Shown piece by piece: positions 1 through 5,484 of a stretch of DNA of 5,484 bases (position 1 is the stretch's first letter; each line of letters begins with the position of its first letter). This DNA comes from Escherichia phage Lilledu. The notes beneath the pieces are model-generated. The model searched no databases. It was not told where the DNA came from and saw only the letters and a program-made list of their open reading frames with translations. The stretch lies in the sequence record MK791318. One strand, given 5' to 3'. The position numbers and the translations under genes are program-made.

Positions 1-1635
1 ATGTCTGTAGAACTCATCAAACCACTCGTCGAAGCCGCTGGCATGTCGACACTCACGCAATCTCCAAACCTCCGTATCTGGAAACAGGTAAACACTCGCG
101 TAAAATTACTCGAAGAAATCCTTGCTCACTGGACAAACGGAATCCGTCGCTGCCCTGAAACCCAAGACTTCTACATGAACCCAAATTCTCAACTGGCTAC
201 TACTATTGCCTATCGTGCCCATCAAAAAGGACATAACCCAAAACTCATTCAATACCCTGACACATTTACTCTCGACGACATTATTCGCCGTAAACCAATC
301 CCTCAAACTGCCCCTGACGAACTACGCCTCTCTGATGAAATCGGTGAGGATTACCGCCTTACAGTCATCGCCATTGCTGACGAACTGCAAGAATGTTACG
401 ACGTGCTCGGACAACTTGATATTAATAACACTATAGACCACACCCCTAAAGGTAACGCCCACTGGAGTATGCTTTATGATAAACCTGTTAACACCCATTG
501 GTCACAGCTCGTATCTAAACGACCCCTTAAAGATATCCGCGCCGATTACAACTATGCAAAGGCGAAGGGTATTAAGGATGAATGCTCAAAAATGCTTGAG
601 GAATCCACCATGAAATCACGCCGGGGCTTTACCGTTCAACGATTGATGAATGCTATGCGCCAAGCCCACACTGACGGCTGGTATGTTGTATTCGACACTC
701 TTACTCTGGCCGATGACCGCATACAGGCTTTCTATGATAATCCCAATGCTCTTCGTGACTACTTCCGTGATATTGGTCGTATGGTGCTTGCTGCCGAGGG
801 TCGCTCTGCTAATGACTCACACGCCGACTGCTATCAGTATTTTTGTGTTCCAGAGTATGGCACACAGCACGGTCGTCTACATTTCCACGCAGTGCACCTT
901 ATGCGCACACTTCCTCTGGGTTCTCGTGACCCTAACTTCGGTAAGCTGGTACGCACTAATCGCCAAATAAATAGCTTGCAAAACACTTGGCCTTACGGCT
1001 ACTCTATGCCCATCGCAGTCCGGTACTCCCAAGACGCATTCTCGCGCGCTGGCTGGCTCTGGCCTGTCGACTCAAAGGGTGAACCCCTTAAAGCTACCTC
1101 GTATATGGCTGTCGGCTTCTACGTCGCTAAATACGTTAATAAAAAATCTGATATTGACATGGCCGCAAAAGGCCTAGGGAATAAAGAATGGAACGCATCA
1201 CTCAAGACCAAAATATCTCTCCTACCAACCAAACTATTCAGAATCCGAATGTCCCGCAACTTCGGGATGAAGATGTTATCAATGGCGCACCTGACCGCAG
1301 AAACATTGATCCAACTGACCCAGCTGGGCTACGACTCGACCCCGTTCAACAACGTCTTGAAGCAGAACGCCAAGAAAGAGCTGAAATCGAGGCTGGCAAA
1401 AGCATCTGTCGCGACCGTTTTGGCGGCGCAACCTGTAACGACCAATCTGCTAAAATTTATGCGCGATTTGACCCGAACAATCGGAGCGTCCAACCTGCAG
1501 AATTTTATCGCTTCAATGACTCAGAAATTAACACTCATGGATACTTCTGATGAAACCAAAAACTACCTTGCTGCTGCAGGAATTACTACTGCTTGCTTAC
1601 GAATTAAATCGAAGTGGACTGCTGGTGGAAAATGA
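1..1635 (+). CDS. A: Replication initiation protein A (HUH rolling-circle endonuclease), 544 aa
   Basis: ORF 1..1635, stop TGA 1633-1635. Translation carries the HUH motif L-H-F-H-A-V-H (codons 877-897) and the paired active-site tyrosines in [10 protein letters not shown] (Tyr374/Tyr378, codons 1120-1122 and 1132-1134). The C-terminal ~340 aa closely resemble phiX174 protein A as I recall it. GGAGG at 5472-5476 sits 8 nt upstream of the ATG at position 1 if the sequence is circular, so the start at 1 is probably the true start. It cannot be excluded that the ORF extends upstream across the junction. Confidence 0.93.
412..441 (+). other. Viral (+) strand origin of rolling-circle replication; predicted protein A nick site between G418 and A419
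   Basis: The 30-nt sequence CAACTTGATATTAATAACACTATAGACCAC is present exactly. From memory this is the conserved origin that protein A recognises and cleaves in phiX174-like phages. It lies inside gene A, as in phiX174. Confidence 0.85.
610..1635 (+). CDS. A*: Protein A* (in-frame internal initiation product of gene A), 341 aa
   Basis: In-frame ATG at 610-612 preceded by GAGGA (597-601). The product begins MKSRRGF..., the same N-terminus as phiX174 A*, and the length (341 aa) matches. Assigned by homology and position, not independently provable from sequence. Confidence 0.65.
1188..1550 (+). CDS. B: Internal scaffolding protein B, 120 aa, overprinted in an alternate frame of gene A
   Basis: ORF 1188..1550 lies entirely within A in a different frame. 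The product (MERITQDQ...PQLRDE...[24 protein letters not shown]...[15 protein letters not shown]) is clearly similar to phiX174 B and has the same length. Purine-rich AGGGAATAAAG precedes the ATG. Confidence 0.9.
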
Positions 1636-1714
1636 AGAAATTCAATCTTGCACTAAAGAACTCGAGAGGGTCTTACTTCGCAACCTTTCGCCATCAACTC
1701 GCAATACTCTCTAA
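1550..1714 (+). CDS. K: Protein K, 54 aa, overlapping the 3' end of A and the 5' end of C
   Basis: Hand translation from ATG 1550-1552 (overlapping the B stop as TGATG) gives [54 protein letters not shown], stop TAA 1712-1714. The core [19 protein letters not shown] and the LSPST motif match phiX174 K. Too short to appear in the supplied ORF track. Confidence 0.85.
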
Positions 1715-1892
1715 GGCTGATGCCCTTGACGAGGAAAAATGGCTTAACATGCTGGGCGCTCTTCTTAAGGACTGGTTCCGCTACGAAGAACATTTCGTAC
1801 ATGGCAAACAATCTTTAGTTGACATATTAATCGAACGGGGGTTACTATCCCCCACACAAACAACCCGTAACAACAAAGGAAATACCAAATGA
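1632..1892 (+). CDS. C: DNA maturation / packaging protein C, 86 aa
   Basis: ATG 1632-1634 overlaps the A stop (ATGA at 1632-1635). The product [42 protein letters not shown]...[25 protein letters not shown] is near-identical in its core to phiX174 C. The track's longer ORF from 1614 (MDCWWKM...) is an upstream in-frame extension that I do not take as the start. Confidence 0.92.
1819..1848 (+). promoter_or_regulatory. PD-like sigma70 promoter for the D-E-J-F-G-H transcript
   Basis: TTGACA at 1819-1824 and TACTAT at 1843-1848 with an 18-nt spacer, located inside gene C about 40 nt upstream of the D start. This is the same arrangement I recall for the phiX174 PD promoter (TTGACA ... TACTAT). 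Confidence 0.6.
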
Positions 1893-2344
1893 ACTCCAAC
1901 GAATCTGCTGTAGCCTTTCAAACTGCAATCGCTTCTATCAAAATGATTCAAGCTTCATCCGTCCTCGACCTTACCGAAGACGACTTCGAATTCTTAACTG
2001 GCGACCGTGTCTGGATTGCTACTGACCGCTCCCGCGCCCGCCGTGCTGTCGAGGCCTGCGTATATGGAACACTGGACTTTGTCGGGTATCCTCGCTTTCC
2101 TGCTCCTGTTGAGTTTATTTCTGCTGTTATCGCTTACTACGTTCATCCGGTCAACACCCAGACCGCTTGTCTCATCATGGAAGGAGCCGAATTTACTGAA
2201 AACATCGTCAATGGCGTTGAATCCCCAGTTAAGGCTTCCGAACTCTTCGCTTTCGTTCTCCGTGTCCGCGCCGGCTGTAAAGACGTCCTCGAAGGTGCCG
2301 AAGACAACATTCGCGCTAAACTCCGTGCACAAGGAATCATGTAA
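1889..2344 (+). CDS. D: External scaffolding protein D, 151 aa
   Basis: ATG 1889-1891 overlaps the C stop (ATGA). AAGGA at 1876-1880 lies 8 nt upstream. The product is near-identical over most of its length to phiX174 D (e.g. WIATDRSRARR.VEACVYGTLDFVGYPRFPAPVEFI.AVIAYYVHPVN.QTACLIMEGAEFTENI.NGVE.PVKA.ELFAF.LRVRAG). Stop TAA 2342-2344. Confidence 0.96.
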   Translation: MNSNESAVAFQTAIASIKMIQASSVLDLTEDDFEFLTGDRVWIATDRSRARRAVEACVYGTLDFVGYPRFPAPVEFISAVIAYYVHPVNTQTACLIMEGAEFTENIVNGVESPVKASELFAFVLRVRAGCKDVLEGAEDNIRAKLRAQGIM

Positions 2345-2351
2345 TGGCTAA
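2064..2351 (+). CDS. E: Lysis protein E (MraY inhibitor), 95 aa, overprinted within gene D
   Basis: ATG 2064-2066 in an alternate frame inside D, preceded by GAGG (2051-2054). The product begins MEHWTLSGILAFLLLLSLFLLLSLTTFIRSTPRP..., a hydrophobic N-terminal transmembrane segment aligning with phiX174 E (MVRWTLWDTLAFLLLLSLLLPSLLIMFIPSTFKRP...). Stop TAA 2349-2351, inside J. The track ORF starts further upstream (2007), but the internal Met matches the E N-terminus and has an SD. Confidence 0.85.
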   Translation: MEHWTLSGILAFLLLLSLFLLLSLTTFIRSTPRPLVSSWKEPNLLKTSSMALNPQLRLPNSSLSFSVSAPAVKTSSKVPKTTFALNSVHKESCNG

Positions 2352-2430
2352 AGGCAAATCTTATCGCCGCGGCTCTGCTGGCAATAAAAAAGGCTCCCGC
2401 CTCTGGTACGTTGGCGGCTCACAATTCTAA
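2344..2430 (+). CDS. J: Small basic DNA-binding / packaging protein J, 28 aa
   Basis: ATG 2344-2346 overlaps the D stop (TAATG). AAGGA at 2331-2335. Hand translation: MAKGKSYRRGSAGNKKGSRLWYVGGSQF, stop TAA 2428-2430. Highly basic with the conserved C-terminal ARLWYVGG.QF-type motif of microvirus J proteins. Shorter than the 38-aa phiX174 J. Confidence 0.85.
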   Translation: MAKGKSYRRGSAGNKKGSRLWYVGGSQF

Positions 2431-2437
2431 TCTCTCT

Positions 2438-2451
2438 GGGGCTTCGGCCCC
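2438..2451 (+). terminator. J-F intergenic stem-loop (GGGGC-TTCG-GCCCC), terminator / mRNA-stabilising hairpin
   Basis: Perfect 5-bp GC stem (2438-2442 / 2447-2451) around a TTCG loop, 8 nt after the J stop. The same GGGGCTTCGGCCCC element sits at this position in phiX174 as I recall it. It is not followed by a strong U-tract, so termination is probably partial at most. Confidence 0.6.
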
Positions 2452-2467
2452 AATTTAAGGATATAAA

Positions 2468-3754
2468 ATGTCTAATGTTCAAACTTCCGCATCTCGTGAC
2501 GCAATTGACTTATCACATCTGGTCTTCAACACTGGCGCTATTGGTCGCCTTAAAGTCGCGTCATGGACTCCTGTTATCGCTGGTGATTCTTTCCAGCTTG
2601 ACGCTGTTGGTGCTTTACGCTTATCCCCTCTGCGTCGCGGCTTGGCTATTGACTCAACTGTTGATTACTTCACTTTCTACATTCCACACCGTCATATCTA
2701 TGGTGATGCATGGATTCAATTTATGAAAACTGGCGTCGCTGCCGCTTCTCTTAACCCTGTAACTACTGGCGAATACGTTGACAGCGCCTCTTATCTTGGT
2801 GTAATCCCTTCTGCTGATGGCAAGGTTCCCAAGTTCCTGCACCAAGGCTATCTCAATATTTACAATAACTACTTCAAAGCCCCTTGGATGGCTGACCGTA
2901 CTGAGGCAAACCCCTCCAACTTAAACGACGACGACCGTCGTCACGGCTTCCGCTGCTGCCACTTAAAAAATATCTGGTCTGCGCCTCTTCCTCCTCAAAC
3001 GGAAATTACCCGCGCTATGACTACTGGCGCTACCTCCATTGATATCATGGGTCTTCAAGCTGCCTACGCCCAACTTCATACTGACCAAGAACGTGACTAC
3101 TTCATGCAACGTTACCGTGACGTAATCTCTTCGTTCGGTGGCAAAACTCACTATGACGCTGACAACCGTCCTCTTCTGCTTATGCGCTCTAACTTCTGGG
3201 CTTCTGGCTATGACATTGACGGTACTGACCAAACCTCATTAGGTCAATTCTCTGGTCGTGTCCAACAAACATTCCGCCACTCTGTTCCTCGCTTCTTCGT
3301 ACCGGAACACGGCGTTATTATGACTCTTCAACTCGTACGCTTCCCGCCTACCTGCACTGAGGAAACTCACTATCTCGTCGGCAAAGGCGCACTAAACTAT
3401 ACTGACCTTGCGGGTGATCCAACTCTTTACGGTAACTTACCGCCTCGCGAAATCGAAATGAAAACTCTCTTCCGTGGCGCTGCTGGCTCTACTGAAAAAA
3501 TCAAAATTGCCGAAGGGCAATGGTATCGCTATCATCCTTCCTACGTTGATGGACAATATCACAACCTTCAAGGCTTCCCGTTCATCCAAAATGGTCCAAC
3601 TGGCAACATGGAAAACCGTGTACTGATTGACCATAAAAAATACGACGAATGCTTCCAATCACTTCAATTAACTCACTGGAATGCCCAGGCTAAATACAAT
3701 GTCACTGTATATCGACATATCCCGACCACACGTGATAGCATCATGACTTCTTAA
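2468..3754 (+). CDS. F: Major capsid protein F, 428 aa
   Basis: ORF 2468..3754 with AAGGA at 2457-2461. The product is strongly similar throughout to phiX174 F (MSN.QT...DLSHL.F..G.IGRL......TPVIAGDSF..DAVGALRLSPLRRGLAIDSTVD.FTFY.PHRH.YG...I.FMK.GV ... HLKNIW.APLPP.TE..R.MTT..TSIDIMGLQAAYA.LHTDQERDYFMQRY.DVISSFGGKT.YDADNRPLL.MRSN.WASGYD.DGTDQTSLGQFSGRVQQT ... TTRDSIMTS). Confidence 0.97.
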   Translation: MSNVQTSASRDAIDLSHLVFNTGAIGRLKVASWTPVIAGDSFQLDAVGALRLSPLRRGLAIDSTVDYFTFYIPHRHIYGDAWIQFMKTGVAAASLNPVTTGEYVDSASYLGVIPSADGKVPKFLHQGYLNIYNNYFKAPWMADRTEANPSNLNDDDRRHGFRCCHLKNIWSAPLPPQTEITRAMTTGATSIDIMGLQAAYAQLHTDQERDYFMQRYRDVISSFGGKTHYDADNRPLLLMRSNFWASGYDIDGTDQTSLGQFSGRVQQTFRHSVPRFFVPEHGVIMTLQLVRFPPTCTEETHYLVGKGALNYTDLAGDPTLYGNLPPREIEMKTLFRGAAGSTEKIKIAEGQWYRYHPSYVDGQYHNLQGFPFIQNGPTGNMENRVLIDHKKYDECFQSLQLTHWNAQAKYNVTVYRHIPTTRDSIMTS

Positions 3755-3765
3755 AGCCTATAACG

Positions 3766-3803
3766 TGACAGGGGGAAAAATTTTAATTTTTCGCCCCCTG
3801 TCA
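3766..3803 (+). promoter_or_regulatory. F-G intergenic extended hairpin (terminator-like; candidate complementary-strand initiation / primosome assembly structure)
   Basis: TGACAGGGGG (3766-3775) pairs with CCCCCTGTCA (3794-3803). The stem extends through AAAAA (3776-3780) / TTTTT (3787-3791) with a 2-nt CG bulge and a TTTTAA loop. It lies in the ~99-nt F-G intergenic gap, the location of the F-terminator hairpin and complementary-strand priming signals in phiX174/G4-type phages (established knowledge; the function here is inferred). Confidence 0.6.
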
Positions 3804-3853
3804 GGTTGAACAAGCGCAAGCGCGTTAGCTACCTAACTATAAGGACTACTCAA

Positions 3854-4378
3854 ATGTTCCAGAACTTTGTCACTAAACACAATTCTCCTCAATTTACTAC
3901 TACTATCACAAAGGCTGTCACTCCCGCTGCGTTGGCTCCTATTATTAATACGCCAACCGTTGCGCGTGACAATCTATTTGTGAATCTAACTACTACCGCC
4001 CTGACTTCTCCGGGCGGTATCTCTGCTGTTGTCGCTATCGACAACTCCTCTCATACCGACAATCAGGTCGTTTCTGTTGCTGCCTCACTTTCTACTATCG
4101 GCAGCCTCGTACCTGTTCTTTGTCGGTTTGAATCTGCTACTGTCCCAACGGCTATCCCCGCCTCTGCGGTTACTTACTATCCGTTGGAATTTAAATCATC
4201 TGATACTACTCTGTCCGTTAAGGACTGCGTTACTGTCTCTACTCTTTCTCGCTCTGGCAATCCTGTTTATGTAGGTATTGCCCTTATTGCGAAATCATTT
4301 GTCGCCGGTACTGTGTACGGCTCCATCTCAATTAATCAGGTTGACCAAGAAATCACAACTCTGCAACCTCTCAAATAA
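3854..4378 (+). CDS. G: Major spike protein G, 174 aa
   Basis: ATG 3854-3856 preceded by AAGGA (3841-3845). The product begins MFQNFVTKHNSPQF... and ends ...SINQVDQEITTLQPLK, matching the conserved N- and C-termini of microvirus G proteins (phiX MFQTFISRHNS ... LQPLK). The middle is divergent and reads closer to G4-type G than to phiX G. The track ORF begins at 3806, but that start lies in the intergenic hairpin region and lacks an SD. Confidence 0.9.
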   Translation: MFQNFVTKHNSPQFTTTITKAVTPAALAPIINTPTVARDNLFVNLTTTALTSPGGISAVVAIDNSSHTDNQVVSVAASLSTIGSLVPVLCRFESATVPTAIPASAVTYYPLEFKSSDTTLSVKDCVTVSTLSRSGNPVYVGIALIAKSFVAGTVYGSISINQVDQEITTLQPLK

Positions 4379-4387
4379 GGAATCTCT

Positions 4388-5425
4388 ATGTTTGGTGCAA
4401 TCGCTGGCGGCATCGCCTCTACTCTTGCTGGCGGTCTAATGTCCAAACTGATGGGCGGCAATAAACAAGCCGCCCCTTCAACTCCCGGACAAGGCCTCTT
4501 CGCTACTCCTGAAACTACTATCTCTGCTGACAATGCAGGTATTCAATCTGTTATGCAGGGACCTAACCCGCCTAGCCCTGATCAGGCGGCTCCTACATTT
4601 ACCGAATCTGCCGTCTCCTCACTTAAGGATGCTGGCAAAGGACTCCTCGATGGTACTCTACAAGCTGGCGGCTCTGCTGTTCAACAAGCTCTTCTTAACA
4701 AAATTGGCCTCGGTGGCAAATCTGCTGCTGATAAAGGCAAGGATACTAAAGATTACCTTGCTTCTGCGTTCCCCGAGCTCAACCCGTGGGAACGCGCTGG
4801 CGCTGGTGCTTCCTCTGCTGGTATGGTTGACGCTGGTTTTGAAAACCAAAAGCAACTAACCAAAATGCAACTTGACAACCAAGTCAAAATCGCTAAGATG
4901 CAAAACGACACCCAAAAGGATATCGCTGGTATCCAGTCTGTCACATCACGCATGAATACTAAGGACTCTGTATATGCTCAAAACGAAATGCTCCAATACA
5001 ACCAAAAGGAATCTATGTCACGTGTTGGCGCTATTCTCGAAAACACAAGCCTCACCAAACAACAACAAACTTCTGAAATTATGCGCCAAATGCTTACTCA
5101 GGCTCAAACCTCAGGACAACACTTTACTAACGCTCAAATCCAAGAGCTTACTCGAAAAGTCGGTGCTGATATTGATGCTGTTCGTGCTAACACTGAACGC
5201 ACCCATGTAGAAACTGACCGCTCTAAACAGGAAGTCCAAAACTCACGTTACGCATCATCACAGGTCGGTAAAACCGCCAAGGACGTATCAAATGTCATTA
5301 GTGACGCATCTTCTGGTATTGTTGATTATTTTCGTGGCGTTGATAAAGCTGTATCGGACACTTGGAACAATTATTGGAAAGATGGTAAAGCCGACGGAGT
5401 AGGCTCCAACATGTCTCGCAAATAG
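4388..5425 (+). CDS. H: Minor spike / DNA pilot protein H, 345 aa
   Basis: ATG 4388-4390 with AAGGA at 4377-4381, overlapping the G stop. Gly/Ala-rich N-terminus [21 protein letters not shown], central block [51 protein letters not shown], and C-terminal ...[23 protein letters not shown] all align with phiX174 H. Stop TAG 5423-5425. Confidence 0.95.
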
Positions 5426-5426
5426 C

Positions 5427-5454
5427 TTGACAATCACATCATAAATCCTATCTA
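5427..5454 (+). promoter_or_regulatory. PA-like promoter upstream of gene A (across the circular junction)
   Basis: TTGACA at 5427-5432, 16-nt spacer, TATCTA at 5449-5454. phiX174 has TTGACA at the equivalent position just after the H stop. The -10 element is a weak match, so the exact hexamer is uncertain. Confidence 0.5.
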
Positions 5455-5456
5455 AT

Positions 5457-5478
5457 AGCCTCCATTAACACGGAGGCT
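5457..5478 (+). terminator. H-A intergenic hairpin (H terminator-like) whose 3' arm carries the gene A Shine-Dalgarno
   Basis: AGCCTCC (5457-5463) pairs with GGAGGCT (5472-5478) around an 8-nt loop, followed by TTTAACA and then ATG at position 1 of the circle. phiX174 has the homologous GCCTCC...GGAGGC hairpin followed by a T-run and the A start. The U-tract here is only 3 nt, so intrinsic termination may be inefficient. Confidence 0.6.
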
Positions 5479-5484
5479 TTAACA

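Follow-up and report, generated by a model that had tools for sequence, protein, structure and literature searches.

The Escherichia phage Lilledu record: a probable complete circular genome of the phiX174/G4 type, opened at gene A

Relatives among the Bullavirinae

In phiX174 (Sinsheimervirus), the spacer between genes H and A has been described as an overlapping promoter-terminator element, pA-T_H (Logel and Jaschke, bioRxiv 10.1101/2020.03.05.979765). The literature on this phage recognizes four leaky terminators, situated in the J-F, F-G, G-H, and H-A spacers. Closer to the sequence studied here are the coliphages of the wastewater Lille/SECphi17 clade (lillemer, MN850599; Lilleto, MK629529; Lilleput, MK629525; Lilleen, MK629526; MG1, OR702609; SECphi17, LT960607). 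Olsen et al. (2020, Viruses 12:986) assigned this clade to Gequatrovirus despite an overall similarity of 59 to 68%, and in the NCBI taxonomy, the closest relative is listed among the unclassified Bullavirinae.

In the current study, we analyzed the whole 5,484-nt record of phage Lilledu (MK791318; here, the window), of which a preliminary description had been made from the sequence. The window belongs to the Lille/SECphi17 clade, near-identical members of which have already been published. It has the gene order and gene A start of these phages and a whole-genome nucleotide identity to them of 93.7 to 98.1% (over the full length, 96 to 98% to lillemer, Lilleto, Lilleput, and MG1, and 93.7% to SECphi17). 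The Lilleput, Lilleto, Lilleen, and MG1 records are moreover opened at the same ATG. The window carries 12 private substitutions and has 7 nt fewer in the J-F spacer, where its hairpin is of the SECphi17 type; over positions ca. 2300 to 2490, SECphi17 is closer to it than are the phages that otherwise rank nearest. Members of the clade may swap short patches, of which the J-F hairpin region would be one example.

With the G4-like phages (Gequatrovirus: G4, ID2, ID18, and WA14), the window shares the eleven-gene layout, an identical 30-nt origin, a short H-A spacer with the same promoter, hairpin, and Shine-Dalgarno unit, and A, C, and D proteins that are 78 to 86% identical. However, nucleotide identity is ca. 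80% over 73 to 86% of the genome (ID2 and G4), gene A starts 9 to 10 codons later in the window, and the G proteins are ca. 42% identical. The F protein is nearer to that of phiX174 (73.6%) than to that of G4 (66.6%), and the F-G spacer is of the ID2/phiX174 type rather than the longer G4 type. Taken overall, phiX174 proteins are 40 to 83% identical to those of the window. An affinity with alpha3/St-1 was ruled out; identity in the A protein is 40%, and the H-A spacer there extends over ca. 757 nt.

One tentative possibility is that the Lille phages, SECphi17, and MG1, with Salmonella phage PJNS002 as a more distant member, form a genus-level lineage of the Bullavirinae distinct from G4, phiX174, and alpha3. 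Such a lineage would combine a G4-like replication and scaffolding module with an F protein and F-G spacer nearer to those of phiX174/ID2 and a G protein that is only ca. 42% identical to that of any classified member. We judged this jointly with a second point, a genuine base change at the cut (discussed below), and give the pair somewhat less than an even chance.

Gene content and intergenic hairpins

The preliminary description listed eleven genes, each present once and in canonical order, and Pfam searches together with pairwise comparison to ID2, G4, and phiX174 support that list. Genes A, A*, B, K, C, D, E, J, F, G, and H lie on one strand (the + strand, as do all features given here) with the A/A*/B/K/C and D/E overlaps of the Bullavirinae, and 96.3% of the window is coding. 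A, B, K, C, D, F, G, and H were called from Pfam matches above the gathering score, and E and J were called by alignment to ID2, G4, and phiX174; all eleven are free of internal stops and align to their counterparts in these three phages.

Gene A (positions 1 to 1635; 544 amino acids [aa]; Phage_GPA, E = 2.4e-60) encodes the rolling-circle replication initiator, with 83.4% aa identity to the A proteins of ID2 and G4, the HUH motif HFHAVH at aa 294, and the catalytic tyrosine pair YVAKY at aa 374. Inside it lies the viral-strand origin (412 to 441), the 30-mer CAACTTGATATTAATAACACTATAGACCAC, which exactly matches phiX174 4299 to 4328 as well as G4 and ID2 at position 500. By homology to phiX174, in whose record rep_origin is annotated at 4306, the nick would fall between G418 and A419. 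Gene A* (610 to 1635; 341 aa) uses an in-frame internal start within A, 7 nt downstream of a GAGGA; its length is that of A* in ID2, G4, and phiX174, to which it is 83 to 88% identical.

Overlapping A is gene B (1188 to 1550; 120 aa; internal scaffolding protein; Phage_B, E = 6.3e-44), followed by K (1550 to 1714; 54 aa; Protein_K, E = 1.3e-16), both of which were also recovered by pairwise comparison, and by C (1632 to 1892; 86 aa; DNA maturation protein; Phage_C, E = 2.8e-40). Gene D (1889 to 2344; 151 aa; gpD, E = 1.2e-80) encodes the external scaffolding protein and contains, in the +1 frame, the lysis gene E (2064 to 2351; 95 aa), which extends 7 nt beyond the D stop into J. The N-terminal sequence of E, MEHWTLSGILAFLLLLSL, matches that of G4 E (54% identity), and its score against Pfam Microvir_lysis was 20.3 bits, below the gathering cutoff of 25. 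Gene J (2344 to 2430; 28 aa; MAKGKSYRRGSAGNKKGSRLWYVGGSQF), encoding the DNA-binding core protein, had no match in the Pfam search and was recognized by the C-terminal RLWYVGG..F common to the J proteins of ID2, G4, and phiX174. Its ATG overlaps the D stop codon (TAATG), and the J start given in an earlier account is corrected here to 2344, with one base common to the two codons. The remaining genes encode the major capsid protein F (2468 to 3754; 428 aa; Phage_F, E = 1.7e-151), the major spike protein G (3854 to 4378; 174 aa; Phage_G, E = 2.6e-30; ca. 42% identity to G4 and ID2 G), and the pilot or minor spike protein H (4388 to 5425; 345 aa; Microvir_H, E = 4.1e-140). Both D and G are thus present, as expected of the Bullavirinae; to our knowledge, gokushoviruses lack the external scaffolding protein D and the major spike protein G.

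Two of the spacers between these genes contain hairpins. The J-F hairpin, GGGGCTTCGGCCCC (2438 to 2451; -12.2 kcal/mol, z = -2.1), occupies the site of the phiX174 terminator T_J and is preserved in relatives through compensatory changes. The F-G spacer, which is 99 nt long and aligns as a homologue of the ID2 and phiX174 F-G regions, contains a 10-bp hairpin, TGACAGGGGG...CCCCCTGTCA (3766 to 3803; -34.7 kcal/mol and z = -4.7 for the spacer). An Rfam scan of the window returned no family at the gathering score.

The joined ends and the H-A spacer

The central proposal of the preliminary description was that the window is a full unit-length circular microvirus genome cut at the start of gene A. 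The window does open on the A start codon (1 to 3) and close in the H-A intergenic region, 59 nt beyond the end of the H stop at 5425. As that description had suggested, we joined the ends in silico (the last 300 nt followed by the first 300 nt) and aligned this 600-nt query to lillemer, SECphi17, and PJNS002, the records of which are opened at other points, so that the junction is internal to them. It matched internal lillemer sequence at 97.5% over 600 nt with a single 1-nt gap, and SECphi17 and PJNS002 at 89.3% and 89.4%, respectively; the match was unbroken in all three. In whole-genome alignments to rotated relatives, the indels were small (1 to 4 nt) and confined to intergenic regions, and none deleted H-A sequence; relative to these phages, the H-A region is intact. 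The length of 5,484 nt likewise falls, as proposed, in the phiX174/G4 range, inside the ca. 5.4 to 6.1 kb of circular Bullavirinae genomes.

We regard it as almost certain, from colinearity with relatives rather than from the isolate's own reads, that the window represents one complete circular single-stranded DNA unit of a phiX174/G4-type coliphage (Microviridae, Bullavirinae), given as the + strand and opened at gene A, and that its ends are adjacent in the molecule. The cut between 5484 and 1 is arbitrary, a database convention and not a biological terminus. That the window might instead be incomplete, a fragment of a longer contig, or else an integrated or concatemeric copy is highly improbable and effectively refuted: we found no point in favor of such a reading, and it is opposed by an H-A spacer of 59 nt (58 to 60 nt in the closest relatives), by the colinear junction in three differently cut genomes, by a source length equal to 5,484, by the lack of any gene duplication or truncation, and by a search of 5,426 complete E. 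coli genomes, which gave no hit to the junction. Terminal redundancy was also considered and rejected, as the ends of the window share no repeat.

No + strand open reading frame spans the joined ends. After circularization, an in-frame TGA lies upstream of A at 5428 to 5430, with no ATG, GTG, or TTG between it and position 1; the ATG at position 1 is therefore the earliest possible A start, which rules out a longer, G4-like upstream start. The joined-end sequence had no exact match among IMG/VR viral contigs, and neither form of the AAC(N)ATG junction occurred in IMG/VR and JGI metagenome contigs, which fits the statement of Olsen et al. (2020) that phages of the Danish Lille group are absent from metagenomic databases. 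Exact-protein look-ups returned no contig for H and, for A, solely Lilleen's own record.

The H-A spacer resembles that of phiX174 in its order of elements: TTGACA, a gap of 17 to 18 nt, a -10 hexamer, GCCTCC...GGAGGC with the Shine-Dalgarno sequence, a T-run, and the ATG. The putative pA promoter (5427 to 5456) consists of a -35 hexamer, TTGACA (5427 to 5432; 6/6 consensus), an 18-nt spacer, and a -10 hexamer, TCTAAT (5451 to 5456; 5/6 consensus). These lie at positions homologous to those of phiX174 and G4 and align column by column with TTGACA-N17-TTTCAT and TTGACT-N18-TAATAT, respectively; the -10 hexamer thus differs from the TTTCAT of phiX174. A hairpin homologous to that of phiX174 T_H follows at 5457 to 5478 (AGCCTCC, loop ATTAACAC, GGAGGCT, and then TTAACA), with a 7-bp stem (5457 to 5463 paired with 5472 to 5478), -12.6 kcal/mol, and z = -3.5. 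Its loop is 8 nt long (versus 3 to 7 nt), and it is followed by a run of 3 T, versus 6 T in phiX174. Across the Lille group, PJNS002, ID2, G4, and phiX174, the arms are invariant and the loop is variable, while St-1 has a hairpin in the same position with another stem sequence.

As in the pA-T_H element, this GC-rich hairpin comes after the -10 hexamer and carries the gene A Shine-Dalgarno sequence, GGAGG (5472 to 5476), in its 3′ arm. The next 8 nt, CTTTAACA (5477 to 5484), lead to the ATG at position 1 once the ends are joined, exactly the spacing that had been described. The same description saw a single regulatory unit spanning the junction. The phiX174-like layout of that unit is indeed present, but promoter, hairpin, and Shine-Dalgarno sequence are all contained in 5427 to 5478, at the 3′ end of the window, and the cut therefore leaves each of these signals whole; the spacer between the Shine-Dalgarno sequence and the ATG is the sole part that crosses it. 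Consensus promoter and terminator scans, run on the window and on lillemer across the junction, reported neither pA nor T_H, the former because its -10 hexamer has no A at position 2 and the latter because its T-run has only 3 T. Both assignments therefore rest on homology, and their promoter and terminator activities are putative.

By analogy with phiX174 and G4, the genome would first be converted to a double-stranded replicative form, from which host RNA polymerase would transcribe in the + sense only, with gene A driven by the promoter in the H-A spacer. Protein A, an HUH endonuclease, would nick the origin and start rolling-circle synthesis; B and D would act as scaffolding for the F/G/H capsid, C and J would package the DNA, and E would lyse the cell. 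The hairpin at 5457 to 5478 would terminate transcripts coming through H and, on these same transcripts, would hide the gene A ribosome-binding site. Transcripts from pA, on the other hand, would begin within the 5′ arm of the hairpin and so leave GGAGG free, an escape suggested by the phiX174 record, in which the transcription start is annotated at 3962, within the hairpin stem and just downstream of pA.

The base at the cut

The terminal A of the window (5484) is the same letter as base 1 and has no equivalent in six of the seven relatives compared. The window reads ...TTTAACA|ATG, compared with ...GGAGGCTTTAAC|ATG in the relatives (TTTAAC|ATG in lillemer, SECphi17, Lilleput, MG1, and Lilleen) and ...GGAGGCTTTCTC|ATG (TTTCTC|ATG) in PJNS002; this junction base is where the Lille/SECphi17 H-A spacer departs from that of the window, with one substitution in addition in SECphi17. 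Because these six relatives lack the base, their Shine-Dalgarno spacing is 7 nt. Lilleto is the exception, its last seven bases being different (CTCTTTCGA|ATG).

A5484 may duplicate base 1 as a 1-nt overlap (a linearization artifact), or it may be a true 1-nt insertion. We see an even chance that the record is one base too long, with A5484 being A1 left behind by trimming, a true unit of 5,483 nt, and a spacing of 7 nt. The extra base lies precisely where the record was opened and repeats the first letter, and the shorter form is read in lillemer, SECphi17, and PJNS002 at a site internal to the record. Errors of this kind are found in sister records: lillemer has a duplicated GG (a 2-nt overlap) at its own ends, which would frameshift gene F, and the SECphi17 record contains 55 nt of assembly redundancy and comes to 5,483 nt once this is removed. 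In addition, Table 1 of Olsen et al. (2020) gives Lilledu as 5,483 bp with a GC content of 47.2% (47.21% in the window). On the other hand, single-base indels are common in intergenic sequence, Lilleto differs yet again at this site, and its length is also mismatched (5,492 in Olsen et al. versus 5,494 in the record). Given the six relatives in which A5484 finds no support, the unit length may be 5,483 nt. Alternatively, the extra A could be genuine, in which case the Shine-Dalgarno spacing would have grown from 7 to 8 nt; together with the separate lineage considered above, this has, in our estimate, less than an even chance.

The uncertainty over one base at the cut is a minor matter of data quality, and the genome as a whole adds one more isolate to a published coliphage clade and raises no new biological question. 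Its importance lies mainly in bookkeeping. If the ends are left unjoined, the H-A spacer looks like a dangling end, and naive circularization of lillemer, with its 2-nt overlap, would break gene F. In annotation, positions 5484 and 1 have to be handled as neighbors; otherwise, gene A seems to lack both a promoter and a ribosome-binding site.

Completeness of the genome

Megablast of the window against 50,697 phage records matched 569 microvirus records. Full-length matches included lillemer (98.1% identity), Lilleto (97.7%), Lilleput (97.2%) and MG1 (96.0%); Lilleen, which carries a deletion, matched 97% of the window at 96.8% identity. SECphi17 matched at 93.7% (coverage 95%), Salmonella phage PJNS002 at 83.5% (coverage 86%), and the ID2 and G4 group at about 80% (coverage 73-86%). 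The preliminary description took the window to be a full unit-length circular microvirus genome cut at the gene A start, a reading that we find correct, well observed and ordinary. The full source length equals that of the window, 5484 nt. The window opens on the ATG (1-3) of a 544-aa ORF ending at 1635, and the final long ORF (4388-5425) leaves 59 nt, in which GGAGG (5472-5476) is followed by eight bases, CTTTAACA, to the window end, exactly as originally described. In the circularised window, the gene A frame extends back to a TGA at 5428-5430, and no ATG, GTG or TTG lies between this stop and position 1, which is therefore the first usable start. No plus-strand ORF crosses the junction of the circularised window, and no repeat is common to the two window ends.

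To examine the junction directly, the last 300 and first 300 nt of the window were joined into a 600-nt query. The lillemer record is cut elsewhere, within gene F, and there this query matched internal sequence unbroken (97.5%, with a single 1-nt gap); it also matched internal sequence as one piece in SECphi17 (89.3%) and PJNS002 (89.4%). Joining the ends in silico, a check proposed in the preliminary description, thus yields a junction colinear with these genomes. (The SECphi17 record has an exact 55-nt terminal repeat, arising from assembly, and measures 5483 nt without it.) When every relative was rotated to the A start and aligned with the window, no H-A sequence was found to be missing, a loss that had been named as telling against unit length. 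Against the close relatives, the alignment showed indels of 3 and 4 nt on either side of the hairpin between J and F, of 2 nt in Lilleto's F-G spacer, of 2 nt where the lillemer record itself begins and ends, and of 1 nt at the junction of the window. In Lilleen (MK629526), approximately 155 nt are absent, corresponding to window positions ~3739-3894. The gap takes in the last part of F, all of the F-G spacer and the beginning of G, so that F and G overlap in the annotation; it reflects either a viable deletion or a collapse in assembly.

Gene content and the D-E-J-F region

Gene coordinates were set by translation and by pairwise alignment with annotated genes of ID2, G4 and phiX174. Together with Pfam, these confirmed eleven genes, each in single copy, in canonical order and on the plus strand: A (1-1635), A* (610-1635), B (1188-1550), K (1550-1714), C (1632-1892), D (1889-2344), E (2064-2351), J (2344-2430), F (2468-3754), G (3854-4378) and H (4388-5425), covering 96.3% of the window. 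Eight ORFs exceeded the Pfam gathering score (Phage_GPA, Phage_B, Protein_K, Phage_C, gpD, Phage_F, Phage_G and Microvir_H). E matched Microvir_lysis only below threshold and begins MEHWTLSGILAFLLLLSL..., as does G4 E; J had no Pfam match and ends in RLWYVGGSQF, a C-terminus common to all relatives. Both the HUH motif (HFHAVH) and the tyrosine pair (YVAKY) are present in protein A, and the 30-nt viral-strand origin (412-441) is identical to that of phiX174, G4 and ID2.

The lysis gene E runs 7 nt beyond the D stop into the first codons of J, so that D, E and J have bases in common around 2337-2351. In ID2 and phiX174, by contrast, E ends before D, whereas in the G4_WWN record it overruns D as in the window. 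The J-F spacer (2431-2467) contains a GGGGCTTCGGCCCC hairpin common to the window, SECphi17 and PJNS002; in lillemer, Lilleto, Lilleput and Lilleen, this spacer is 7 nt longer, with GTGGGACCACGGTCCCAC, and the hairpin is kept through compensatory changes, while MG1 has the longer spacer and an intermediate stem. Over ~2300-2490, the window shows 96-97% identity to SECphi17, as against only about 90% to the relatives that are otherwise its closest, which suggests a recombination patch.

The H-A spacer and the base at the cut

The preliminary description envisaged one regulatory unit spanning the junction, comprising the putative gene A promoter (pA), the hairpin terminator after H (T_H) and the gene A Shine-Dalgarno. 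The sequences assigned to these signals all sit at the 3' end of the window, and only the Shine-Dalgarno-to-ATG spacer crosses the cut. Alignment of the H-A spacers of the window, seven relatives, ID2, G4 and phiX174 revealed one common layout. A putative -35 (TTGACA, 5427-5432; identical in phiX174, TTGACT in G4) is separated by 18 nt (17 in phiX174, 18 in G4) from a putative -10 (TCTAAT, 5451-5456; TTTCAT in phiX174, TAATAT in G4). There follow a hairpin (AGCCTCC, 5457-5463, and GGAGGCT, 5472-5478; GCCTCC...GGAGGC in all aligned spacers), a short T-run (6 T in phiX174) and the ATG. The hairpin has a folding energy of -12.6 kcal/mol (z = -3.5), and across the aligned lineages its arms are invariant while its loop and flanks vary. 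The layout recurs in St-1, a member of the alpha3 group, with a different stem (GCCCTCG/CGAGGGC).

In the phiX174 RefSeq record, a transcription start is annotated at 3962, inside the 5' half of that phage's hairpin. Logel & Jaschke described four leaky intrinsic terminators, among them T_H between H and A, and pA-T_H as an overlapping promoter and terminator that "resets" transcription ahead of gene A. By homology, we assign the same putative roles to the signals in the window. Transcripts reading through from H would fold the hairpin, which would both terminate them and mask the Shine-Dalgarno; those starting from pA would not contain the 5' arm, so that the Shine-Dalgarno would be exposed. 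The assignment has its weaknesses: position 2 of the -10 is not the usual A and the stem is followed by only three T, so that consensus promoter and terminator scans detected neither pA nor T_H.

Immediately before the A start, lillemer, SECphi17, Lilleput, MG1 and Lilleen read ...GGAGGCTTTAAC and PJNS002 reads ...GGAGGCTTTCTC; the window, once joined, reads ...TTTAACA. Of the seven relatives compared, six lack the extra base, A5484, which falls precisely at the cut and is the same base as position 1. We consider the chances about evenly balanced that it duplicates A1, as a 1-nt overlap left by linearisation, in which case the Shine-Dalgarno spacing would be 7 nt, as in most relatives. Consistent with such an overlap, Olsen et al. 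(2020, PMC7552041; Table 1) list Lilledu (MK791318) at 5483 bp; they give its GC content as 47.2%, and that of the window is 47.21%. Moreover, the lillemer record (MN850599) ends ...CATGG and begins GGCG..., a duplicated GG indicating that small overlap artefacts do occur in this data set. That duplication maps to window position ~3310; circularised as deposited, lillemer would carry a 2-nt insertion shifting the frame of capsid gene F, which accounts for its fragmented F annotation. The Lilleto record (MK629529) has ...GGAGGCTCTTTCGA as its final 7 nt where others have ...GGAGGCTTTAAC, and is 5494 nt long versus 5492 in the table of Olsen et al.; its divergent end may be another end artefact.

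Placement of the clade

Every sequence-testable defining feature of the Bullavirinae was found in the genome, and nothing in it is new in kind, near-identical genomes having already been deposited and published. Beyond the preliminary description, our analysis adds a probable overlap of 1 nt where the window is cut, precise coordinates for its parts, and the location of the signals wholly at the 3' end. Olsen et al. (2020, PMC7552041) described the Danish phages as five near-identical "gequatroviruses" differing by SNPs and in non-coding regions, a name given to the clade despite 59-68% overall similarity. NCBI taxonomy, by contrast, lists it as unclassified Bullavirinae, so that the two sources differ on its genus. 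Identities of 78-86% mark proteins A, C and D as G4-like, whereas capsid protein F is nearer to that of phiX174 (73.6%, versus 66.6% for G4), and spike protein G is about 42% identical to that of G4, ID2 or phiX174 and 48% identical to that of PJNS002. The affinities of F and G are mosaic.

The F-G spacer (3755-3853) is nearly identical to its ID2 counterpart, shows clear homology to that of phiX174, and is unlike the longer spacer of G4. In phiX174 the F-G region contains the PriA primosome assembly site; in G4 it contains a primase-only complementary-strand origin. Given its ID2/phiX174-type spacer, this clade may prime complementary-strand synthesis in the manner of phiX174.
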